NCBI GenBank assembly: GCA_965200965.1
Contig: OZ241744.1
Span: forward strand, 672,001-736,000
Direction of reading: 5' to 3'
Length of the DNA: 64,000 nt
Source of the DNA: an uncultured Candidatus Binatia bacterium
GTDB taxonomy: Bacteria > Desulfobacterota > Binatia > Bin18
The notes under the pieces are model-generated. The model saw only the letters and a list, made by a program, of their open reading frames with translations. It ran no database searches and had not been told where the DNA came from. Below are positions 4,366 to 46,426 of the stretch, piece after piece (positions within the stretch are counted from its first letter, which is position 1; every line of letters begins with the position of its first letter). Made by a program: the position numbers and the translations under genes.

Positions 4366-5088
4366 ATGATTGATATACACTATTGGCCCACGCCAAACGG
4401 CAAAAAGGTGACCATCCTGCTTGAAGAGTGTGGCATGGCCTACACGATGATCCCGTGCAATATCGGCCGCGGCGATCAGTTCACCGACGAGTTTCTGAAC
4501 ATCTGCCCCAACAACCGGATGCCGGCACTGGTTGACCACGAACCCCTGGGCGGGGGCGAGCCGATCAGCATTTTTGAGTCTGGGGCGATGATGATGTACA
4601 TTGCCGAGAAGGCCGGCAGGTTCTATCCCCAAGACCTGCGGGGGCGTTACAAGGTCAACCAGTGGGTGATGTGGCAAATGGCCAATCAAGGCCCCAAAAG
4701 CGGGGAGTGTGGGCATTTTCGGCGTCTCGGTGACGAGCAGGGCGACCAGACATATGCGGTGCGGCGCTTCACCGATGAGGTCAACCGGCTGTTTGGCGTC
4801 CTGAACAATCAACTCTACCGCCAGCGTTATGTGGCCGGCGACGAGTACTCCATCGCCGATATGATTTGTTACCCGTGGACGGTCCACTGGGAAGCCCAGG
4901 GCCAGGACATCAACGAGTTCACATACTTCAAACGCTGGTTTGACGAACTCTCGGAGCGGGACGGGGTGAAAAAAGGCATGGCCGTGGGCAGCGAGCTGTC
5001 TATGGACTTCTCCAAGCTGTCGCAGCAAGAGAAAGACCGTCTGCGCAAGATGCTCTACAACCAGCGGGCGCGCCCGGTCCCGGAATAG
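4366..5088 (+). CDS. Glutathione S-transferase (YfcG/YghU-like)
   Basis: WPTPNGKKV, PNNRMPA, FESGA, YSIADM. Confidence 0.9.
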   Translation: MIDIHYWPTPNGKKVTILLEECGMAYTMIPCNIGRGDQFTDEFLNICPNNRMPALVDHEPLGGGEPISIFESGAMMMYIAEKAGRFYPQDLRGRYKVNQWVMWQMANQGPKSGECGHFRRLGDEQGDQTYAVRRFTDEVNRLFGVLNNQLYRQRYVAGDEYSIADMICYPWTVHWEAQGQDINEFTYFKRWFDELSERDGVKKGMAVGSELSMDFSKLSQQEKDRLRKMLYNQRARPVPE

Positions 5089-5156
5089 GCGGACGGCAAA
5101 ACATATGAGATCCGGAACGGCGCTGTTCCGGTGGGGATGATTTCGAGCCTGGAATC

Positions 5157-5882
5157 TTATCGCCGGCCAAGCTGAACCGCCTCGGCCAGCTCGACTGTGC
5201 CGGTGTACAGGGCGCGGCCGATAATCAGGCCGTGGATGCCGTCGGCTTCATACGGCCGCAACCGCTCAACGTCTTCAAGACTGGCCACGCCACCAGAGGC
5301 AATAACAGGAATCTGCACCGCCCGGGCTACGGCCCGGGTGGCTTCGATATTCACTCCTTGCGCAGTGCCGTCCCGGACGATATCGGTGTACACAATCTCA
5401 CCAACGCCCAGAGCTTGGCACTGTGCGGCCAACTCGGTCGCTCCAAGCCCGGTCGTTTTGGTCCAGCCTTGGACGGCGACTTTTCCGGCCCGGGCATCAA
5501 TACCGACCGTAATCCGGCCCGGAAAGCGGCGGCACGCCTCGGCCACAAGGTCCGGCTGCCGACAGGCCACCGTGCCCAGAATGGCCCGCCGCACACCGAG
5601 CGAAAACACCCGCTCAATCGCCTCAAGGTTGCGCAGCCCGCCGCCGAACTGCACCGGGAGGTCAACGGCTCGACAGACCTTTTCTATGACCGCGGTGTTG
5701 ACCCCGGTTCCCGACACGGCCCCGTCAAGGTCAACGACATGCAGCCGCTCGGCCCCGGCACCCTGCCAGCGTCGGGCCACAGCGACCGGCTCGTCAGCAT
5801 AGACGGTCGCCTGATCCATATTACCCTGGTACAGACGCACACACTGACCGGCCTTGAGATCAATGGCGGGGATAATCTCCAT
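5157..5882 (-). CDS. hisA: ProFAR isomerase
   Basis: IIPAIDLKAGQCVRLYQG, LHVVDLDGA, GGGLR, IASGGV. Confidence 0.97.
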   Translation of the reverse strand: MEIIPAIDLKAGQCVRLYQGNMDQATVYADEPVAVARRWQGAGAERLHVVDLDGAVSGTGVNTAVIEKVCRAVDLPVQFGGGLRNLEAIERVFSLGVRRAILGTVACRQPDLVAEACRRFPGRITVGIDARAGKVAVQGWTKTTGLGATELAAQCQALGVGEIVYTDIVRDGTAQGVNIEATRAVARAVQIPVIASGGVASLEDVERLRPYEADGIHGLIIGRALYTGTVELAEAVQLGRR

Positions 5883-5888
5883 AGGGCT

Positions 5889-6533
5889 TCACAGCCGGCG
5901 GGAGTCGGTCACAAATTTGCCAAAGTTGGCCAGGATTTGCAGGCCGACCGTCTGGCTCTTTTCGGGGTGAAACTGGGTGGCAAAGATAGTGTCCGACCAG
6001 ACGCTTGAGGCAAATGGAATGCCGTACTCGGTGGTGGTGGCAACAATGGCCGGGTCTGCCGGGAGCGGATAGTAGGAGTGAACAAAATACACGGCCGCGC
6101 CCTCGGGCACATGGGCCAGATGGGGGGCCGACCGCTCAATGTGGAGTTGATTCCAGCCCATGTGGGGAATTTTGTGTGGCCCATCGTCGCTTATCAGCCG
6201 GGTCGGGTCAAAGCGCTCAACCGTGCCCTTGAGGATGTCCAGACCCCGCACCCGGCCAAACTCGTGGCTTTCTGAGAACAGAATCTGCATCCCGACACAG
6301 ATGCCAAGCAGCGGCGTGCCGGCGGCGGCCACCCGATGGACGGTGTCAATAAGCCGGCAGGCGGCCAGCCCGTCCATACACGCGCCAAACGCGCCCACGC
6401 CTGGCAGAATCACCCCCGCGGCAGCCTCAATCCGGGCCGCGTCACGCGTGATTTCAGCCGGGTAGCCCATCTTCTCGCAGCCTTTCTGCACGCTGCGCAG
6501 ATTGCCCATGCCGTAGTCAATAATCGCAATCAT
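5889..6533 (-). CDS. hisH: Imidazole glycerol phosphate synthase glutaminase subunit
   Basis: IDYGMGNLRSV, LPGVGAF, GICVGMQ, PHMGWN, QFHPEKS. Confidence 0.97.
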   Translation of the reverse strand: MIAIIDYGMGNLRSVQKGCEKMGYPAEITRDAARIEAAAGVILPGVGAFGACMDGLAACRLIDTVHRVAAAGTPLLGICVGMQILFSESHEFGRVRGLDILKGTVERFDPTRLISDDGPHKIPHMGWNQLHIERSAPHLAHVPEGAAVYFVHSYYPLPADPAIVATTTEYGIPFASSVWSDTIFATQFHPEKSQTVGLQILANFGKFVTDSRRL

Positions 6534-7116
6534 GCCCCATCCCCTTCAAAGCTGGCCGTCAAGTGGATCAAGGCCCTCCAATTCCCCTTCAGAACTGGCT
6601 CCAGTGTGTGAGATCTTCCTCTAATTCCCCTTCAGAACTGGCGTTGGTTACTCAGGAGTTCCTCTAATTCCCCTTCAGAACTGGCTTACCAAAGGCGGTG
6701 CTTCCTCTAATTCCCCTTCAGAACTGGCCGGTCGAGCCAGGATCTTCCTCTAATTCCCCTTCAGAACTGGCACCCGGAAGGGATGCAATCCTCTAATTCC
6801 CCTTCAGAACTGGCGCGAAAGAGGAAGAACACCCTCTAATTCCCCTTCAGAACTGGCACCCGGAAGGGATGCAATCCTCTAATTCCCCTTCAGAACTGGC
6901 CGGCAATCACGGTGTTGGCCTCTAATTCCCCTTCAGAACTGGCCCAGGCTTTTGATAGAGTCCCTCTAATTCCCCTTCAGAACTGGCCGGCAATCACGGT
7001 GTTGGCCTCTAATTCCCCTTCAGAACTGGCGTTGGGGACGAGACTGAACCTCTAATTCCCCTTCAGAACTGGCCTGCAGTGGAACGATGGACCTCTAATT
7101 CCCCTTCAGAACTGGC
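6532..7116 (-). CRISPR. Type V-C CRISPR array: 13 full 25-nt repeats plus 1 degenerate terminal repeat, 13 spacers
   Basis: Plus-strand repeat CCTCTAATTCCCCTTCAGAACTGGC starts at 6575 (1 mismatch), 6618, 6661, 6704, 6747, 6790, 6833, 6876, 6919, 6963, 7006, 7049 and 7092, with a degenerate copy at 6532-6556. Twelve spacers are 18 nt and one is 19 nt. Degeneration at the left end and an AT-rich leader at the right imply minus-strand transcription (crRNA repeat GCCAGUUCUGAAGGGGAAUUAGAGG). Confidence 0.98.
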
Positions 7117-7175
7117 TTATAGCAGATAACTATTTGTACTACAATCGGCTTCTGATTTTTCCAATGAGGATACTC
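7116..7175 (-). promoter_or_regulatory. CRISPR leader with candidate sigma70 promoter
   Basis: AT-rich 59 bp between the array and cas1; the minus strand reads TTGTAG-17 nt-TATAAG with an extended-10 TG. Confidence 0.55.
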
Positions 7176-8201
7176 ATGGCTGAAATTGATAAATTTCAAC
7201 ATCCAGATTCTATTTGGACATGGAAATCAACCAAGCGAGGCGGCAAGACGACCTTGTGGCTGCCCTATGTCTCTCAGGTAGACAGACTCAAAAAGAACCT
7301 CTGGCGGTTCACCTATAACGGGGGCGAGGTCGATACCGACCTGTCTCAGATTGAATGTGTCATGTTCTAGGGCGCGACCGGACAGATTCCCGTCGCGCTC
7401 ATTGACGACCTTTCCTCTCGCCGTGTCCCGCTCCTCGTTCACCGTCGCAACATCGGACGCCCGGCGGTTTTCCTGCCGGCACCCAGAGCCGATTCCGAAG
7501 ACATTTTGACAAAACAGATCGTTGCCCGAACAAATGAGTCCAAACGTGCTTACATCGCGCGGACGCTGGTACGCGAGCGTTTTCGGGCCGTAGTTCTGCC
7601 CATGCCGAGCACCGTCTACAAGCGGCTGGCGCGGGCGCGGAATCCTGGACAGGTACGGGTCTGGGAAGCCGAGCAATCACGCAGATATTGGCGGAGATAT
7701 TTCACTCAGCTGGGATATCCCGACGTGACACGCAGAGAGGGGGGACCTTTACCAGCGGCGCTTGACGCCGGTTCCATGTTCCTGTCCGGCGTTCTTTTGC
7801 GCTGGCTGCTCATCCACCGGCTTTCGCCCAGCCACGGCTTCCTGCATGAAGGGACCGACTACATGGGACTTGTCTACGACCTGATGGAACCGGCGCGGCA
7901 CATGATTGAGGAGGCTGTTGCCACGGCGTGCAGGGCTCATCCTCCGCAGGACGGTTCTGATTCGCTGACCAAAGCGGCCTTGTCCGCGCTGAAGAACGAT
8001 ATGGAGAAGGTTGTCTACGTTCCTGCTACCCGCCAGTTCGTGCGTCGCAAAAATCTGCTGCACGGAAACGTGCTGGCGCTGCGGGCCTACCTGGCCGGTG
8101 ATATGCGCCGGTTTGTCGTTCCTGTCGCGGGCGAACGCAAGGGCGGGCGTCCGCCGAAGGTTTCCTACCGGCTGCCGGGTGATATTCCTGCCGCAAGGTA
8201 A
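7176..8201 (+). pseudogene. cas1: Type V-C Cas1 with in-frame TAG at 7368-7370
   Basis: ORFs 7134-7370 and 7506-8201 share one frame. Read-through gives MAEIDK...LWLPY...IECVMF*GATGQIP...EAEQSRRYW...SPSHGFLH...LVYDLMEP (Cas1 E/H/D-type motifs); GAGGA RBS. Confidence 0.9.
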
Positions 8202-8318
8202 AAATGCCCCCCTTTGAAGGGCATCCCGTGCCTCCGGGGGGCGAGAGGCGGGGACGCCTTCCAGGTTGAGGTATGGATGATCAGTCCTTCGGCCTGGAAG
8301 GGAATGAGGGACTGTTGC
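8202..8318 (-). ncRNA. Candidate tracrRNA/scoutRNA of Cas12c
   Basis: Minus strand has UACCUCAA (8266-8273; CCUC pairs with repeat 3' GAGG) inside a 9-bp stem (8257-8265/8293-8301) and CCCUUCA (8215-8221; pairs with repeat UGAAGGG), ending in a hairpin plus U-tract. Confidence 0.75.
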
Positions 8319-11300
8319 TTATTTCCGCTTCCCGGTCAAGTCCCGAAGCGCCGCTCTTGACCTTTCCACATCAATCCGTTCCAGAAAGCGCCGGCCGATA
8401 TTGATCGCGGCGTTCTCGTCGGCATGACCCTCATAGCCACAGTCAAGGTACACGCAGGTGAAGCGAGATTGTGTGGTGTCTGGTGACATGGTAGACGACG
8501 GGGCTTGTCGCATGTTGCGCTTGACGAGGCGCTCAATATCGCGGCGTGGTCGGCTTTTTTTCTGAACTGGCACATTCAGCGGTCGTCTCTTCTTTTCGCG
8601 GCGAAACTTCTTGCACTCGCCGGGCGAATAATCAGTTCGTTCGAGAAGCCGTATCGTTCCGTCTTTAAGGGCAATGTGGCCGTCTTCCCCCACTTCGATC
8701 CTGTCTGGCATGGTGCGGAGCGCCTGAAGGGCGTTTCGGCCGCAACGGTGGCAAATCTGGCTGGTACCGGCGGGGTTCACTGTGACGCCGGGAAACATGC
8801 GGAGCGGCTTGGATGGGCCGGAAAACTGCCTTTTCTTGTTGTTCGAGGTGTGGATGTAGGAATGATCCCAGCTGTCCGCGGTAAACCAATGGTGGCGACG
8901 AACCGTCTTATGGGCCTCCACTTCGGAAAACGTGTAGCGACGCAGGACCGAACCGTAGATCATTTCCAGTTGACCGGCACCTGTCTCGAAGTTGACGACC
9001 GAGCTTTCGAGAACGGGAAATCCGCCGAAACGTTTGCACAGGGTCTCAATACGGTTGCAAATGTCGCCCACCACGTTTTCCCGGAAGCGCATCAGAGCCT
9101 TGGAATAGGTCTGGCCAACCTTCTGGTTGGGTTGACGTGAACCGCGGTGGCGACGGACCGCGGCCCTCAGTCTCCTGAAGGCAGGAATGGCGACGCTGCC
9201 GACCTCAAGCGGGTCCCGTTTGTTCTTTTCCACAAAGTCTCTCAGCGAGAAGACCGCATAGCCGATACGTCGCTCGCCAAGGTCTATGGCAACGATGTGG
9301 TCAAACAGAGATGGAGCTTCGGGAGACGGGCGGTCGTCAATGACAGGAATGGCAAGCTCGCCCCTGGTCTGCACCGGTTCTGCCGAGAGGCGTATCTGCT
9401 CACCTTCCAATTGCAAAGACTGTGTGAAAACCCGGTCGAGGATCAGCGTATAGTCGCCGAGTTTTATATTCTTGTCTGTCAGGGCGCGGTCGAGCCACGT
9501 CTTGAAGGAAGGCGGGCCGATCAGCCGGAAGGCCGGTTTTTTCGTGGCTCTCCAGCGTTTGAGTCCGCTTGTTGCGTTCTTCTTGACAGGGAGACCGGCC
9601 AGGGCCGGTGCTGTGCCGCCTCGGAGGTCGAGTTCGACATACCAGTCGTGGGGCGCTTGACACGCAGCAGGGCGCGCGTACCCGGCTCGGGAAACTTTGC
9701 CTTGCTCAAGCTCTGTGCTGTCTCGCACGGCAGAACGGCTTCGGCCTTGTCACGCATGACCGCGGAAAGCTCCAAGCCCTTGGATATTTCACCCTTGGCC
9801 GAAGAATAGTCCGCGGGCGGCTGCCAGGGGCGTTCCTTTGGGACATAAAACAATTCTTCGTGGTCAAGGCGCAGAAACTTCGTGCGCACGATGAAACCGT
9901 CACGGAATGCGCGAAACAACAGGCCCTTGATAGCGCTGTTGAACAGGTTGAAGGCGCGCATGGCTACATCACGCGAAACCTCCTCAACATCGAGTTGGGC
10001 GGCGAGCAGGGGAGGGATGTTGATGAAGACGATTCCCGGTTCCGGTTTTGCCAGATGGCCCGGTATACAATTGGGCAGACCGCCGAACCGTGTCGTCAGG
10101 ACAAACTCTTCTATCAACAGCAGATCGCGCAGAAGCGCATGGTCTGTGTTTGGAACCGCGTGCAGAGTCTTGCGGAGTTCTGTGGCCCGCTCCTCCAGCC
10201 ACGACAGCCAGTCGCTTGCGCGGGCGCGATCCATGTCGAGATCGTAAGCCTGGTGACGTGAGGTGCTGAAGGGATGCTGATAGAGGCTGCCCTTGCGGTT
10301 GTGGAAATAAAGGTTCGCTTCTTTCTTGTTGCGAAAGAGGGGCGTCATGGTGTCCCGGATTTGCTCGGCCACGCTTGGCGACAGCTGGCGCGACATGGCT
10401 CCGAGGCGGTTCAGCAGCCGCCGAAGTGCGTATTCAGCCGCACGAGCGGGTTTCATGCCACGGTCGGAGAGCGCCTTGTATTCGCGTTCTTCCAGAATAC
10501 GCCAGGGGTCAAGGCCGCCTGTATTGCTGTCGGCCCAGTCGGAGAGCCGCCGGAAGTGCTCGCGGCGCTTTTGCACGACTTCATTCAGGCCGGCTTTCAG
10601 GCGGCGGATCTCGCAGTCGGCATCGTCGGTTCCGCCTGATATGCTGTTCAGCTTGGGGGGCGTGAAATCCCTGGGAATGTCCTGCCTGAGCGATTCCAGG
10701 GCGTTTACACATTTCCCGTCTTGGGCGCGTTCGATTTCCTGCTGGATGTGGCTATCGAGCATGGCAAGTTGCCCAGCTAGTTCGGCCAGTTCGCCGGCGA
10801 CAGATTCAACGGTGGCGATATGCGCCGGTTCGGGAATATCGTCCCCGCTCAAGACAGCGAGCGCGGCTCCGGCCGTGTTGACCCGCTCAGGAATGCGACT
10901 GGAGAGGGCCCGAAGGCCGGCAGCATCGGTGTGCTGACCGGAAAACAGAAAGGCATTATCGGAGCCTTGCAGTTTTTCGGAGATAGTGATGTCCGGCGGC
11001 GAGGAATGCAGGTCGATCAGTTCACACAGGCGCTTCCAGTAGTTTGAGACCCAGGAGGCGATCTTGCCGCCAACGGAGCCGCGAAACTCGGCGTACCCAC
11101 GGGTGTTGAAAAACGGATTGTCGATGGGAATTGCGTCGGCAAAGGCTTTGAGTTGCGTGACCCGTCGCTGTTCCCCGTGTGGAACGACGAGGTCTTCCGC
11201 AATCTGCTTGATGTTCGATTTCCGAAGGTAGCCCAGGCCCTTGCCGAACAGCCAGGACAGGCCATTGTTCTGACCGGTGACAACACTGTCTCTCAGACTC

Positions 11301-12099
11301 CTTGCAAAATCACTCGAGGATGGGACAAGATCGGGCCTGTCTCGTTTCAGCCTGCCGGCGCAAACCGCTACGGCCTGATGCAGCCAGATTTCCTCGTTAC
11401 CGGTCATATCAACAAAGGGAGCTTCAGGATCGTAGGCAAGCGTACAGGAGTCCAGACCGGCTGTGGTTCCGGGTGGCAGGTTCCTGAGCTTCGGAAAGGA
11501 GTTGCCAAAATTCGCCAGATATTCACCGGCATGTGCCAGCGCGCCGGTTGCGTTGCCGGCGAGTTCCTTCCACCCGGAGAATTGGGCAGTGACTGTGTGA
11601 GCGATTCCTTGGGCCAGCAAAAATTCAGGCTGATCCTTCTCACCGTCTTTTGGCGGACGCTTGTTCCAGTCCTGAAACAGCCGTCGCGCCAGGGTGTCTG
11701 CCGACCACGCTACGGCCTTTCGTGGGACTGTGGCGAAGATGCCTTCGATTGATTGAATCGTAATGGCCGAGTTCCTGATTTCCGTATGGACGCGGAGGGC
11801 AGCGGCGAATGCGTCTTCGGGGTACCGGCTTCGGTTTCGGAACTGATGCGTCTCCCCGCCCTTGGAAAACAGGCGGAACCCGGATAGATGGACCGCGCAC
11901 ACCAAGCCGGTCAAGCTCCCGCGTGCAATCCCTTCGGTGATGTCATAGGTCCGAGTTGCCGCGGCAAAGTCCAAATCGCCGTCCTGGCGCTCAGCTTGAA
12001 TTTGTATGTAAAAACGCTTTCTTCCTGTCTCCGCGCAGCCGTTGCCACTTTGCGCCGCCAGTCACGCGCGTTCTGCCCACCGTGATATTCCCGTCTTAT
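8319..12099 (-). pseudogene. cas12c: Cas12c (type V-C effector), about 1260 codons, split by frameshifts near 11992 and 9660
   Basis: Three ORF pieces join into one protein: NARDWRRKVA...FKL, HLSGFRLFSKGG, NGLSWLFGKGL, FRGSVGGKIASWVSNY, QAPHDW, RuvC-I IVAIDLGE, RuvC-II FPVLES, Zn-finger CHRC...CVYLDC, RuvC-III HADENAAINI. Confidence 0.9.
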
Positions 12100-12328
12100 A
12101 CCTCTCCCAACTCGTCTGCTGAAAAGTTTTCCTACCGTAGCCCAAACATCGGATTTGAAACAAGCAAGGCTGGGAATCAAGCCGCCGGCACCGGAAGCGG
12201 GCCACACGCTCCCCATTATGTTGACGATGAGCCTGGACGTGGTATCCAGACACTTGGTAGAAAGGCGAATGATGCTCTCTTCCTGAGGGTATCATCGTTC
12301 ACCTTTAGGGGCGCGGGAGGAAGAAGGC

Positions 12329-13495
12329 ATGGCCGCTTCTATCAAGGATCAGGTCGCTGTCATTGGGACCGGCTGCATCAAGTTTGGCGATAATGTTGAC
12401 CAGGGCTATGAAGAGATGGTGGTTGAGGCGGCGTCTGCCGCTTTTGACGACGCCCAGGTCGGCCCCGACGAGATTGATGCCGGCTGGCTTGGCACATATT
12501 CGCCGGCCCAGGGGCACGGCAAGGCCGCGGTGTCGCTGGGTGATGCGCTGCGGTTGTACAACAAGCCGATCTCCCGGGTCGAGAATTTTTGCGCCACCGG
12601 AACCGACGCCTTCCGCCACGCGGTCATCGCGGTTGCGGCCGAGCTGTACGATATGGCCCTGGTGCTGGGGGTGGAGAAGTACAAAGACCGCCCGGGGCAT
12701 GGCTTGGCACGCGAGGGCGTACACCCTTACCATAACGACGGTTCGACCGCGCCTGGCCTGTTTGCCCTGGCTGCCACCCGGTATATGCATACCTATGGCC
12801 TGACCCGTGAGAGCCTGGCCAAGGTGTCGGTCAAAAACCACTACAACGGCTCGCTGAACCCCAAGGCGTATCTGCAAAAGACCGTCTCTGTCGAAGAGGT
12901 CTTGACTGCGCCCATTGTGGCCTATCCGTTCGGGTTGTACGACTGCTGCCCGACGACCGACGGGGCGGCCGCGGTGGTGGTGTGTCGCTCAGACTTGGCC
13001 AGAGAATACCGGGACGACTACATCCTGGTGAAAGGGGTCGGTCTGGCAGTGAGCAGCGGCCGGCCCTTTATGGACCCGGGTTACGATTACCTCGGCTTTC
13101 AGGCTACCGAGCACGCCGCAGCCCAAGCCTACGCGATGGCCGGCATCAGCGACCCGCTCACCGAGATTGACGTAGCCGAGGTCCACGACTGTTTCACCTG
13201 GACCGAAATCACCAACTATGAAGACCTCGGCTTTGTCCCCAAAGGCCGCGGCGCGACCCTGATTGAAGAAGGGCGGACCGCCCTCGACGGTGATATCCCG
13301 GTCAATCCGAGCGGCGGCCTCAAGTCGTTTGGCCACCCCATCGGGGCCAGCGGGGTGCGCATGGTGTATGAGATTGTGAGCCAGTTGCGTGGCCAGGCCG
13401 GCCCGCGCCAAGTCCAGGACCCCCGGCTGGGCCTGGTTCACAACGTTGGGGGGCCGGGCGCGGTGTCGTGCGTGGCCGTGCTGGGCCAGCCCTAA
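12329..13495 (+). CDS. Thiolase (SCP-x/archaeal-type acetyl-CoA acetyltransferase)
   Basis: VENFCATG, CCPTTDGAAA, AEVHDCF, NPSGGLKSFGHPIGASG. Confidence 0.9.
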   Translation: MAASIKDQVAVIGTGCIKFGDNVDQGYEEMVVEAASAAFDDAQVGPDEIDAGWLGTYSPAQGHGKAAVSLGDALRLYNKPISRVENFCATGTDAFRHAVIAVAAELYDMALVLGVEKYKDRPGHGLAREGVHPYHNDGSTAPGLFALAATRYMHTYGLTRESLAKVSVKNHYNGSLNPKAYLQKTVSVEEVLTAPIVAYPFGLYDCCPTTDGAAAVVVCRSDLAREYRDDYILVKGVGLAVSSGRPFMDPGYDYLGFQATEHAAAQAYAMAGISDPLTEIDVAEVHDCFTWTEITNYEDLGFVPKGRGATLIEEGRTALDGDIPVNPSGGLKSFGHPIGASGVRMVYEIVSQLRGQAGPRQVQDPRLGLVHNVGGPGAVSCVAVLGQP

Positions 13496-31454: not shown

Positions 31455-32662
31455 ACCACGGACTCGGGGCGTGTCCTGGTGCGGCTAAGAGCATGGCCCT
31501 GTTTGAGCTGGACGCGGTATGTGAGGCGATCCTGCACTACGGCCAAGTCCGCCCGGCGTGCAGCCTTGATCACCTGACCGCGGCGCTGGCTGGCCGGTTT
31601 TCGGCTGAGGAAGTCGCTGAAACGGTCCGGGAGTTTATCCGCCTGCACCTCATTTGAGCCCAACCCTCCAGCCCCGCCGGTGTTGATGCCTGTACTGGAT
31701 GTTGAGCAGTTTCCGGTCAGCTCGCTAGTCGTTAACGTTGCCAACAAATGCAACCTCCACTGCACCTACTGCTATGAGCCGGAGGAAGCCAAATACGGCC
31801 CCGCGCCGGTCCAGATGGACTGGCCAACGGCCCAGGCCAGCGTTGATTTTCTGTTCCAAAATCGGGTCAGAGCAGGGAGGTCAACCTGATTTTTTTGGTG
31901 GCGAGGCGCTGCTGAACTTCAAGCTGATGCGCCAAGTGGTGGCACCCAGCTTGGAACATCTGTTTGAGCGGCTGTACCGCCCGCCCGGTGGTGGCGCGGG
32001 TCACGGTGACGAAAGACGCGAGCGATATTCTCCGGACGTATGAGCACCTGACCGGCTTGGGCTTTTTTGAGGTCGGATTTTCTCCGGTCACAGCCACCAT
32101 CGGTCCCGACTACGAGTTAGCATCAGCTGATTTGCACGAGGTATTGGCCGGTTTTCGACAGCTCGGCAGCCTGTACGTTGAGCGAGCCGGGCAGGGCCGC
32201 TACACCGACTTCTCTAATCTGAGCACCCTGTTGACCGATATCCATGTCGGAACCAACAAGTTTTTTCCGTGTGGGGCTGGGCTGGGTCTGCTGGATGTGG
32301 ACGGCAATGGCGATGTGTATCGGTGCCACCGTTTCCCTGGCAGTGAAGAGCATACCTACGGCAACATGAAAGATGGGCTGGACTACGGCCGGCTGAATGC
32401 GTTTGTCAACAAGGTCCACCTGGGCAACAAAACGGTGTGTCAGACCTGCTGGGTACGCGGGCTGTGTGGGGGCGGGTGTTATCATGAGGCCCTGACCCGG
32501 TTTGGCGACGCCCTCCACCCCCACCTGCACTACTGCGACTTTCTGAGAGCCTGGACAGAGTACGGCCTCCGGGTCTATATGGAGTTGCAGCGCACCGCCC
32601 CCGGCTTTGTGGAGCGCTATGTGCTGCGGGGCAGGGCAGACGCGCCCAAGGAACTGACGTGA
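31455..32662 (+). pseudogene. qhpD: Radical SAM/SPASM thioether maturase QhpD, disrupted
   Basis: CNLHCTYC, FFGGE, PCGAG...CHRF, CQTCWVRGLCGGGCYH; stop at 31655, frameshifts and an internal deletion. Confidence 0.85.
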
Positions 32663-32673
32663 AGGAGATGCTG

Positions 32674-32985
32674 ATGAAACATCTGAAGCCACGCAACCAC
32701 AAGGCCGAACGGGCCGCTGCCCAAGCGCAGGACGACCTTGTCGGCATGAACCAGCCGGTCGGCTGCACAACGATCTTCAACCCCGGTTGGGAGCCAACCT
32801 GTGGGGGGACGAGCAGTATGTGCGCCCCGGTTGAGGCCGATCTGCTGAGCTGCGCCAATGTGTGTTGGTGGCCGGCCCAGGTGCCGGATAGCTTACAGAA
32901 TACCCCCGAGTGGGCCAAAGCCTGTTCGGGCTCGACCCAGGAAGACTGGAGGAGCCTGGAAGTCGTCTTTCCCAAAATCGACTGA
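32674..32985 (+). CDS. qhpC: Quinohemoprotein amine dehydrogenase gamma subunit (CTQ precursor)
   Basis: MKHLKP leader; GCTT.F.PGWE, C.P.EADL..C...CWWPAQVPD, DWR.L..VFP. Confidence 0.92.
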   Translation: MKHLKPRNHKAERAAAQAQDDLVGMNQPVGCTTIFNPGWEPTCGGTSSMCAPVEADLLSCANVCWWPAQVPDSLQNTPEWAKACSGSTQEDWRSLEVVFPKID

Positions 32986-33027
32986 ACCCCGTCGGGCGAG
33001 GGCGAGCCAGTACTGAAAGGGAATCGG

Positions 33028-34104
33028 ATGCGCTTGTGTCAGGCTTTGCTGGCCTGCCTCGTGCTTGTTGGCCTGCCACACACGGCCTGGGCAAAGTGGT
33101 ATCTGCTGGCCTCGGTCCATCCCAACAACCTGGTCGTGATTGATACCGAGACCGATAGGGTAGTGCAGAATATCGGGCTGGAGGGGCGTGGCCCGGCCCT
33201 CAACATCGCGCCTAATCCCGCCCATCCGCAGTACGCCTATGTGGTGAACAATTTGTCGCAGAGCGTGGCCCTGGTTGATCTTGACGAGGGCAAACAGGTC
33301 ACGAGTTTCTGGCTCTCCAGTGATACTGAGTTGGTCCGCACAATGGCGATCGACGTCAGCGCTCAGGGTGACCGGCTGTTCGTTCACGAGAGGCCGCTGC
33401 AAAAAGACCAGGGCAGTTACGCGGCACTCGACAACCGTATCCGGGTCATTGACCTCAACACCCAGCAGACCGTGCGGACCTTTCCCGCCCCCCGCCAGGT
33501 CATGTCGCTGGCCTCGTCCAAAGACGGCGGCCGGCTGTACGTTTTCAGCGTTGGTCAGGATATCTTTGTGTACGATACCGAAACCGGGCACCAGCTTGAC
33601 CGCCTGCCTCTGCTGAATCGGAATATCACCGGGCTCGGGCGGACCGACGGCCTGCCGCTCGTCAACCCCTACCAGGAGCACGGCTATCTGGTCTCTTTTG
33701 GAACGTTTGTCACCGATACGATTACCGGACAGGTCACGCTCAGCATGGCCTCCCTGGACCTCAGTGCGGCGGATCCCGAGGTTGAGGTAGTTGAATTTCA
33801 GCCCTTCGCCCCGGAGTCCTGTGTGTTGACCGGGGCGCTGTCGCCTACGACCGGAAAAGCCTATTTTGCTTATAACCGCCTGTGGCGGGTCAACCCTCAG
33901 ACCCGTCGTATCGAAAAGAGCAGCCCACTGCCCAATGCCTATTTCACGCCGCTCATCCATCCTCAGGGCACCAAGCTCTACTGTGGTAGCAACTGGCACG
34001 ATGTGGCTGTCTTTGATGCTGAGAGCCTGGAGTTGCTCACCAAAATTGAGCTTGGTGCCACCCAGACCGGCGGGGGCCATGTGCTCCGGTTTGTGGAGCG
34101 CTAG
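33028..34104 (+). CDS. qhpB: Quinohemoprotein amine dehydrogenase beta subunit (beta-propeller)
   Basis: Signal peptide, PNNLVVID, FPAPRQ; position after qhpC. Confidence 0.8.
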   Translation: MRLCQALLACLVLVGLPHTAWAKWYLLASVHPNNLVVIDTETDRVVQNIGLEGRGPALNIAPNPAHPQYAYVVNNLSQSVALVDLDEGKQVTSFWLSSDTELVRTMAIDVSAQGDRLFVHERPLQKDQGSYAALDNRIRVIDLNTQQTVRTFPAPRQVMSLASSKDGGRLYVFSVGQDIFVYDTETGHQLDRLPLLNRNITGLGRTDGLPLVNPYQEHGYLVSFGTFVTDTITGQVTLSMASLDLSAADPEVEVVEFQPFAPESCVLTGALSPTTGKAYFAYNRLWRVNPQTRRIEKSSPLPNAYFTPLIHPQGTKLYCGSNWHDVAVFDAESLELLTKIELGATQTGGGHVLRFVER

Positions 34105-44526: not shown

Positions 44527-45120
44527 CTACAGCATCCCTTTGGTCGATAGTATCCCTTTGACCCGCGGGTCATGCGCGACCGCGCTGCCTAGCGCCCGGG
44601 CGAATGCCTTGAAGCCGGCTTCGATGATGTGATGCGGGTTGCGACCCTGACTCATGTTGAGGTGGAGGTTCATGCCGAGCTGGTTGCTGAAGGCCAGGAA
44701 AAAGTCGTGGACCAGTTCGGTCGCAAATGTGCCGATCCGTTCCTGCCGGACGCGCAGATTATAGGCCAGAAAGGGCCGCCCGCTGAGGTCGACGACACAG
44801 TTCACCAGGGCTTCGTCGAGCGGTACGCTGGCTTCACCAAAGCGGCGGATGCCACGCTTATCACCCAACGCGGCGCGAAAGGCTTCGCCCAACGCCAGCC
44901 CGACATCTTCAACCGTGTGATGGTCGTCAACCTCAATGTCGCCGGTGGCCTCAAGACTGAGATCAAAGAAGCCGTGCCGGCTGAACAACTCCAGCATGTG
45001 GCTGAGAAAGGGCACGCCGGTGGTGACCTGGTACTGGCCGCTGCCATCAAGCTCAAGACTGAGCCGAATGTCGGTTTCGTGTGTTTTGCGGTGCAGGCTT
45101 GCGCTGCGCTGGGCTGTCAT
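44527..45120 (-). CDS. hisB: Imidazoleglycerol-phosphate dehydratase
   Basis: DDHHTVED, PLDEAL, NPHHIIEA.FKA, STKG. Confidence 0.97.
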   Translation of the reverse strand: MTAQRSASLHRKTHETDIRLSLELDGSGQYQVTTGVPFLSHMLELFSRHGFFDLSLEATGDIEVDDHHTVEDVGLALGEAFRAALGDKRGIRRFGEASVPLDEALVNCVVDLSGRPFLAYNLRVRQERIGTFATELVHDFFLAFSNQLGMNLHLNMSQGRNPHHIIEAGFKAFARALGSAVAHDPRVKGILSTKGML

Positions 45121-46426
45121 GCTGGCCTCCCTTGAGACGCTGGGCAACGGCCCGACCGTGGGCCTCGAGGCCCTCCATTGCGGCTAGGCGCATGATGTGC
45201 GGGCCAAGGGCACGCAGGGCCGGGGCCGACGCCTCGATAATACTGGTCCGTTTGAGAAAATCGTATACCCCGAGCGGTGAGGAAAACCGCGCTGTTCCTC
45301 CGGTCGGCAGGATGTGGTTCGGCCCGGCCATATAGTCGCCAAAGGGCTCGGTGGACAGAGCGCCCACAAAGATCGCCCCGGCGTGGCGGATATCGCTCAG
45401 CCATGAGCGCGGATTTTTGACCAGCAACTCAAGGTGTTCCGGGGCCAGGGCGTTGGCCAGCCGTACAACCTCGGCCCGGTCGCGGGCAACGATCACCGCC
45501 CCGTAGCGATTGAGTGAGGCCGCGGCAATCGTACGCCGGCTGAGCGTGGCCAACTGGCCTTTGAGGGCCTCAACGACCGCGGTAGCCAGCCGTTTTGAGG
45601 TGGTCAGACACACGGGGGCGGCCATTTCGTCGTGCTCGGCCTGGGACAGCATGTCGGCCGCCACATAGCTGGCCGGAGCCGTGCTGTCGGCAATCACCAG
45701 AATCTCACTCGGACCGGCCACGCTGTCAATATCAACCTGACCGTAGACGAGGCGCTTGGCTGTAGCGACAAAGATATTGCCCGGCCCGACAATTTTATCT
45801 ACACGCGGCACAGTCTGGGTCCCGTAGGCCAAGGCGGCAATGGCTTGAGCACCACCCAGCCGAAACACCGTGTCGGCCCCGGCTAGGCGGGCCGCGGCCA
45901 GCACAGGCGAGCCGGCCTGCTCGCCGTCTGCTGACGGTGGGGAGACCACCACGATGTCTTCTACGCCGGCGACTTTGGCCGGGATGACGTTCATCAGCAC
46001 CGAAGACGGATAGGCGGCTTTGCCGCCCGGGACGTACACGCCAACTCGCTCCAGGGGGGTGATTTGCTGGCCTAGGCTGACGCCTAGCCGATCTGTATAG
46101 CGCCATGAGGACTGGCGCTGTTTGCGGTGAAAAGCGCTAATCCGCTTGGCCGCGGTCTGCAAGGCGGTCCGTTCGGCTTTTGGCAGGCCGGCCAGGGCCG
46201 CGTCAAGCTCTTGGTCGGTGACGCGCAACGTGTCGAGGCTCAGGCGGACCCGGTCGAATTTTTTGGTGGCGGCGAGCAGCGCCCGGTCGCCCCGGCGTTT
46301 GACATCGCGCACAATCGCCCGGACTGTGGCTTCAACCCGCTCGCCGGCCTGCTCAGCCCGGCTGAACAGCTGCTCTAGCCGGCGGGCGCAGGCCGGGTCT
46401 GAGGTGCTGAGCAGGGGAACGGTCAT
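45053..46426 (-). CDS. hisD: Histidinol dehydrogenase
   Basis: YVPGG, GPGN, AGPSE, QAEHD, APEHL, GDY.AGPNH. Confidence 0.97.
   Translation of the reverse strand: MTVPLLSTSDPACARRLEQLFSRAEQAGERVEATVRAIVRDVKRRGDRALLAATKKFDRVRLSLDTLRVTDQELDAALAGLPKAERTALQTAAKRISAFHRKQRQSSWRYTDRLGVSLGQQITPLERVGVYVPGGKAAYPSSVLMNVIPAKVAGVEDIVVVSPPSADGEQAGSPVLAAARLAGADTVFRLGGAQAIAALAYGTQTVPRVDKIVGPGNIFVATAKRLVYGQVDIDSVAGPSEILVIADSTAPASYVAADMLSQAEHDEMAAPVCLTTSKRLATAVVEALKGQLATLSRRTIAAASLNRYGAVIVARDRAEVVRLANALAPEHLELLVKNPRSWLSDIRHAGAIFVGALSTEPFGDYMAGPNHILPTGGTARFSSPLGVYDFLKRTSIIEASAPALRALGPHIMRLAAMEGLEAHGRAVAQRLKGGQHDSPAQRKPAPQNTRNRHSAQS

Follow-up and report, generated by a model that had tools for sequence, protein, structure and literature searches.

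A type V-C CRISPR cassette displaced the promoter motif of hisH in a Binatia genome, and its leader probably transcribes hisH and hisA

Which promoter serves a histidine biosynthesis gene whose start codon overlaps the last repeat-like unit of a CRISPR array? The question is posed by hisH and hisA in the genome studied here (G000, a single 3.62-Mb contig), within a 64-kb stretch of DNA, hereafter the window, that contains the following features.

5157..5882, minus strand: hisA, above the cut-off of TIGR00007
5889..6533, minus strand: hisH, ATG at 6533-6531, above the NCBIfam cut-off of TIGR01855
6532..6556, minus strand: terminal (14th) repeat unit, matching the repeat at 15/17 and 16/25 positions
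6557..6574, minus strand: oldest spacer, 18 nt
6575..7116, minus strand: type V-C array, 13 repeats of 25 nt

The array is regular, with 12 of its 13 full repeats exact (the repeat at 6575 matches at 24/25 positions) and 12 of 13 spacers 18 nt long, the other measuring 19 nt. The preliminary description had noticed a further repeat-like unit 18 nt past the last full repeat, overlapping the hisH ATG, and this observation held: the 15/17 match forms the minus-strand 5' end of the unit, and on that strand the unit closes with the A and T of the ATG. The unit contains the Shine-Dalgarno (SD)-like sequence GAAGGGGA, with an SD duplex of -9.5 kcal/mol, and carries GCAT in place of the GAGG anchor that pairs with the tracrRNA. 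Outside the array, a match of at least 15/17 to the repeat occurs at 1 of 7,239,780 positions, so a match in exact register is not a chance event. The TIGR01855 alignment of hisH runs from residue 2, equivalent to profile position 1, and one HisH match in G000 makes the gene single-copy; full-profile matches to PF00977 are limited to hisA and a hisF-like gene, leaving hisA as the only full-length HisA found. Misassembly, which could have explained the junction away, is ruled out because short-read contigs from each of two studies run from hisA through hisH into the array. Logan contig X1, possibly from the source sample, spans 4900-6641 with 0 differences, and contigs X2 and X4 from the second study cover 4900-6814 with 12 substitutions, none of them at 6520-6600, and one gap of unstated position. 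An Rfam search of the 64-kb window returned no match.

Repeat-free relatives indicate what preceded hisH originally. The HisH search covered 41 genomes, and loci were taken from 22 genomes of the family, with three more family genomes left out as fragmentary matches. The repeat is present at three of these 22 loci (G000, G007 and G004, hereafter the carriers) and absent from the other 19. A TTG(A/C)TT-N17-(A/G)ATAAT motif lies 6-11 nt before the hisH start at every one of the 19 repeat-free loci and at none of the carriers. The same 19 loci have no SD (duplex mean -3.8, strongest -5.6 kcal/mol), and we infer that native hisH is transcribed from a sigma-70 promoter as a near-leaderless mRNA. 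The ancestral neighbour is a divergent thiolase-family gene and not hisB, as had first been supposed; hisB adjoins hisH in 0 of 7 genus relatives, and the proposed comparison of hisB-hisH junctions is hence not applicable. The remaining features of the locus, and the distant hisD-hisB, are listed below.

7176..8201, plus strand: cas1, broken by TAG at 7368-7370
8201..8306, minus strand: tracrRNA/scoutRNA, complementary to the repeat in its TTCC, CCTC and CCTTCA segments, with a terminator-like hairpin (8221-8207) at its end
8319..12099, minus strand: cas12c pseudogene, with ATA at the start codon and frame breaks near 11987 and 9663
12168..12183, minus strand: stranded native hisH -35 box (GGCTTGATTC), at the far (thiolase) end of the cassette
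12329..13495, plus strand: thiolase-family gene, the ancestral divergent neighbour of hisH
44527-46426: hisD-hisB, away from hisH

In five cassette-free genus relatives the thiolase-hisH distance is 130 bp (G001) or 340-820 bp (G002, G003, G005 and G006). The -35 box stands at the thiolase end of the cassette in G000 and G007, with an eroded copy in G004. It is 5.6 kb away from hisH in G000, where the -10 box has eroded, and the only native -10 remnants before hisH are GGGAAT or GAGAAT, in G007 and G004. With the -35 box at the far end and a -10 remnant at hisH, the 5.6-kb cassette (cas12c, tracrRNA, cas1 and array) was inserted between the two boxes. This was a single event, as the carriers group in one clade (95/97 with three genes from 8 genomes; 93/94 with two genes from 11). 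Overall, these alignments show that the CRISPR cassette displaced the native promoter motif of hisH: the gene lost its own motif (19/19 versus 0/3), as expected of a captured promoter. The cassette holds cas12c, tracrRNA, cas1 and array only, with no transposase or casposase that would mark an insertion sequence or casposon, and junction alignments contain no target duplication or inverted ends, although old ends could have eroded. A two-gene insert, HicAB-like when read by eye, occupies the same gap at G003 L037:14790-15500 and also in G005 and G006, so the thiolase-hisH gap takes up inserts repeatedly.

The content of the cassette identifies its type. The two halves of cas12c in G000 score 503.6 and 484.6 bits against NF033950 (cut-off 250), compared with 1056.7 for G007, relative to which both frame breaks are indels; contigs of two studies cross both breaks gap-free. 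The cas1 gene matches Cas1 models below cut-off (E 1.6e-12) and has an open-frame orthologue in G007. Only ~117 bp separate cas1 from cas12c, and Cas1 stands without Cas2, and apparently without Cas4, as in type V-C. The four cas2 matches in G000 all lie elsewhere (C1 1698948, 2071707, 2216949 and 3365360) and point to further CRISPR systems. The tracrRNA pairs with the 3' anchor of the repeat and with two further segments, again as in type V-C, and an alignment of six loci contains a compensatory change between two genera (repeat TGAAGG with tracr CCTTCA versus TGTAGG with CCTACA). Because this tracrRNA segment co-varies with the repeat, the array must be read on the minus strand, in the direction of hisH-hisA, as the preliminary description had stated; the TA PAM found 5' of self-matching spacers gives the same orientation. 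The short spacers and TN-type PAM also agree with type V-C, and the CRISPR system of G000 is an ordinary, decaying member of that type.

The five leader-side, and thus newest, spacers (4 distinct of 11; 6876-7091) match the chromosome exactly, each with a 5'-TA PAM. Their targets, at G000:C1 523872, 1339832, 2705104 and 3479174, are proC, gyrB, an F420-type LLM oxidoreductase gene and an unassigned gene; TA stands 5' of 4/4 perfect self-matches, and shuffled spacers matched the chromosome in 0 of 2200 cases. Of the 49 distinct spacers of G007, 3 were tested and none matches outside the array. Leader-side spacers in the second study's strain differ from those of G000, and Cas1 likely kept acquiring spacers after cas12c broke. 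The locus would then provide a dated case of self-spacers taken up once the effector was lost, and its self-matches serve as a PAM read-out for this Cas12c clade.

Codon comparison shows that hisH and hisA have been under purifying selection since the insertion. Divergence between G000 and G007 falls wholly after that event, and dN/dS between them is 0.19 for hisH (20 synonymous and 12 nonsynonymous changes) and 0.34 for hisA (36 and 36), with neutrality rejected for both (p about 1e-5 and about 3e-5, respectively). The corresponding values for gst and thiolase are 0.12 and 0.11. Relative to these neighbours, hisH and hisA together have more amino-acid changes (p 0.017), with the same ranking against repeat-free G003.

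Since the native motif is lost and both genes are still under purifying selection, read-through from the CRISPR leader is the likeliest source of hisH-hisA mRNA, and transcription probably enters both genes through the array. Transcription from the leader is a prerequisite for any working array, and the G007 system looks intact, so leader read-through is also the most economical source.

7116..7144, minus strand: predicted leader promoter, TTGTAG-N17-TG-extended TATAAG

The site reads TTGTA(G/A)-N17-TG-TATAAG in G000 and G007 and ranks first on the hisH strand in a relaxed scan of 670 nt of G000 and 2.46 kb of G007. A strict promoter scan omits it, the -10 box being without the conserved last T. 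The predicted promoter overlaps a predicted cas1 -10 box (TACAAT, plus strand), and its -35-like box may be conserved because it is that -10 box on the other strand. We found no terminator-like sites within the arrays of G000 and G007; those at 8221-8207 and 7310-7295 (minus strand) would limit read-through from cas12c. Other points against leader read-through are that G007 needs 2.4 kb of untranslated read-through in a rho-bearing lineage and that the three carriers represent one event. Rho is encoded in G000, and passages of bioRxiv 10.64898/2026.07.09.737519 describe Rho termination in arrays. The array RNA is G-rich, with no C-rich 78-nt window.

Transcription of hisH-hisA could instead start within the far end of the array, in a spacer or the terminal unit. 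Repeat-borne promoters are known in Neisseria type II-C systems, and the oldest G000 spacer contains two -35-like hexamers, TTGACG and TTGATC, the latter placed relative to the ATG just as the native TTGATT box was; weak internal sites also occur in G007, for instance in the leader region (TAGAAA-N16-TAACAT) and mid-array (CTGAAG-N16-CATAAT). We consider such an internal promoter unlikely, since no -10 box follows either -35-like element 16-18 nt on, the repeat has no TAnnnT, and the last spacers differ among the carriers, the oldest G000 spacer being common to neither G007 nor G004. It is less probable still that the insertion largely silenced both genes, leaving leaky transcription and histidine from outside. 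Although dN/dS of hisH and hisA lies slightly above that of the neighbours and the strict scan gives no strong promoter, all three carriers keep both frames intact over dS of up to 0.6, with clear purifying selection, and the other his genes searched for (hisG, hisI, hisB, hisD and the hisF-like gene) are present in G000.

All three carriers gained an SD-like sequence (duplexes of -9.5, -9.5 and -12.8 kcal/mol), which, the repeat being purine-rich, may be a by-product rather than a selected feature. The G007 array ends in a 23/25 repeat with GAGA, followed by 13 nt and GTG, and the hisH flank of G004 consists of a repeat, 26 purine-rich nt and ATG. With G004 as outgroup, the terminal unit of G000 is derived, and it fits a repeat-host fusion by deletion, which would explain why the match to the repeat is confined to 17 nt. 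Such a deletion, between two AAGGG(G)AAT-like stretches, would have fused the first 17 nt of the repeat to the native hisH flank, and the last ~8 nt of the unit are likely this flank in eroded form.

G004 differs in arrangement. At L036:1376-3503 its hisH-hisA pair is inverted, the array runs into the hisA end, and one repeat moved with hisH, which now lies downstream of gst; no clear promoter was found at the inverted hisH. Here hisH-hisA must use another source, making the inversion either an exception to leader read-through or a way of escaping it. The same locus has inverted repeat-plus-purine-tail copies flanking hisH-hisA, a 19-nt spacer repeated ~10 times, and a worn repeat that overlaps the cas1 3' end. 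In G007, a single repeat (L058:2938-2962) lies inside a duplicated ~30-nt unit within a long ORF.

Taken as a whole, sequence comparison shows the cassette sitting between the native boxes, and it is likely that leader read-through transcribes hisH-hisA, with the terminal repeat as the predicted ribosome-binding site (RBS). The leader promoter would now drive both genes, with the terminal repeat acting as the RBS of hisH; in G000, where Cas12c is broken, the array would stay in place as a long 5' UTR of the his mRNA. An active effector would alter this transcript. Passages on Cas12c2 in PMC9522604 state that processing depends on the upstream repeat together with the first six bases of the downstream one, with the cut just before the latter, and quote the ruler model of Harrington, in which the cut falls 18 nt after the upstream repeat. 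Under both models, the last cut in G007 would fall just where the terminal repeat begins. Cleavage there, where the last spacer ends, would free a his mRNA that starts with the terminal repeat and keeps its SD, and the GAGA anchor of G007 (GCAT in G000, versus GAGG in the repeat) would disfavour a further cut into hisH.

These considerations bear on the explanations first offered for the locus: that Cas12c cutting of an array-dependent his mRNA drove cas decay, or that the cassette recombined into a pre-existing, repeat-like hisH RBS. We judge this pair very improbable. Both cas12c and cas1 are broken in G000, as the decay version expects, but G007 has the same hisH junction with a 1283-aa open cas12c frame, an intact cas1 and 55 repeats, and G004 also keeps open cas12c and cas1 frames; the arrangement therefore does not force cas decay. 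Nor would cutting destroy the message, because the cut site published for Cas12c2, as given in those passages (PMC9522604), spares the RBS and would release the mRNA. The recombination version gains from another landing site, a PF05014 gene whose native RBS reads (A)GATTGGAGG, like the 3' end of the repeat, and fails at hisH itself, where the 19 repeat-free family loci have a promoter motif and no SD, the ancestral flank matches the repeat at 3-7 of 17 positions, and at most the 4-nt GAGG is common to both.

The cassette and its repeat have a narrow distribution. Within the family the repeat occurs in 8 of 55 genomes, and Cas12c was found in 6 of 301 genomes of the class, all within this family. 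A GTDB scan for the repeat gave 6 loci, all from uncultured Candidatus Binatia; JGI metagenomes gave 0 loci for either the repeat-plus-hisH pattern or the repeat alone, and IMG/VR likewise 0.

Related cassettes, or what is left of them, adjoin the starts of other host genes in the family. In G014 and G057 the last repeat places its GGAGG 9 nt ahead of the GTG of a resident PF05014 gene (frameshifts in these MAGs could be assembly errors). At a second G004 locus, where a cas1 fragment is all that remains of the cas genes, a leader and two repeats stop 9 nt short of the ATG of a resident alpha/beta-hydrolase gene. At a convergent acetyl-CoA hydrolase gene in G046, G047 and G059 the stop codon comes from the repeat, and 2 of these 3 loci are deleted to one repeat with no leader. 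Deletion scars at G047 L062:3697-3721 and G059 L064:3378-3402 join the cas12c 5' end to a single repeat, and G060 L109 has an 18/25 repeat remnant near the convergent site. At the co-oriented sites (G000, G014, G057 and the second G004 locus) the leader survives cas loss or breakage; its retention there and loss at the convergent site fit the model, in small numbers and among kin genomes. Microhomology to the 3' end of the repeat extends over 8 nt both at the PF05014 gene and, off-register, at the alpha/beta-hydrolase gene, over ~4 nt at hisH, and is absent from the acetyl-CoA hydrolase site; landing by such microhomology is a lead only.

Several further repeats were seen. At G057 L061:7348-8034, ~640 bp lie between two repeats, like a gene-sized spacer behind the leader, and include a 149-aa ORF with a weak, below-cut-off GIY-YIG match (E 0.0023). 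A solitary repeat variant, GAAGGAGAATGAGAG, occurs at G004 L057:3045-3100, where it comes after leader-like sequence and runs up to the ATG of a 72-aa ORF that has no Pfam match, and at G059 L063:3375-3400, where it adjoins another cas1-like gene. Within the window, a 20/25 repeat-like match at 33006-33030, over the ATG of a 358-aa beta-propeller gene, is probably due to chance; its purine-rich half is native, with 16-17/25 matches in two cassette-free relatives and 14 in G004. A radical-SAM-like gene, a short Cys-rich ORF and the beta-propeller gene stand in a row at 31964-34104, an order that presumably resembles a quinohemoprotein amine dehydrogenase cluster.

A broader, less likely reading is that the V-C cassette is a portable promoter-plus-RBS at host gene starts: the leader would take over transcription, the GGAGG- or AGAGG-ended repeat would serve as RBS, and Cas12c would mature the mRNA, with hisH, a nucleoside deoxyribosyltransferase gene and an alpha/beta-hydrolase gene as landing genes. 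If so, the leader could not be deleted without losing histidine synthesis, and his expression would be tied to CRISPR transcription and array length. Read-through alone would make a CRISPR array the 5' region of a core biosynthetic mRNA, offering a route by which leader and array are kept without phage pressure or a toxin, and predicting that the output of a metabolic pathway shifts with spacer gain and with Cas12c processing. The intact (G007), broken (G000) and inverted (G004) carriers constitute a natural comparison. A full-text literature search, with subscription papers mostly outside its scope, found no title or abstract opening that describes such an arrangement.

The closest known relative is type V-C itself. 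As in the passages on Cas12c2 of Kurihara et al. 2022 (PMC9522604), the cassette combines Cas12c with Cas1 in the absence of Cas2, a repeat ending in GAGG, a tracrRNA with three short repeat-pairing segments, 18-nt spacers and a T-containing two-base PAM. Unlike that system, G000 has broken cas12c and cas1 genes, and its array stops where a pair of host biosynthetic genes begins, having displaced the promoter motif of that pair. Ectopic spacer integration, neo-CRISPR arrays and degenerate terminal repeats are known to yield repeat-like sequences at host loci and worn trailer repeats. Both features recur here, but a whole cas cassette is present, the repeat is common to cassettes at other sites, and the worn G000 unit looks like a repeat-host chimera. 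In promoter capture by insertion sequences, including the formation of hybrid promoters, a mobile unit in a promoter supplies an outward-reading promoter to the next gene. The present cassette likewise landed in a promoter and would supply such a promoter, with the differences that no transposase, terminal inverted repeats or target duplication are seen in it, that the promoter would be a CRISPR leader 0.6-2.4 kb away, and that the RBS would come from the repeat. Finally, the integron promoter Pc reads an integrase-grown array punctuated by attC repeats into genes; at hisH, too, one promoter would read through a repeat-punctuated, integrase-grown array, except that this array is non-coding and leads into a resident gene of the chromosome.
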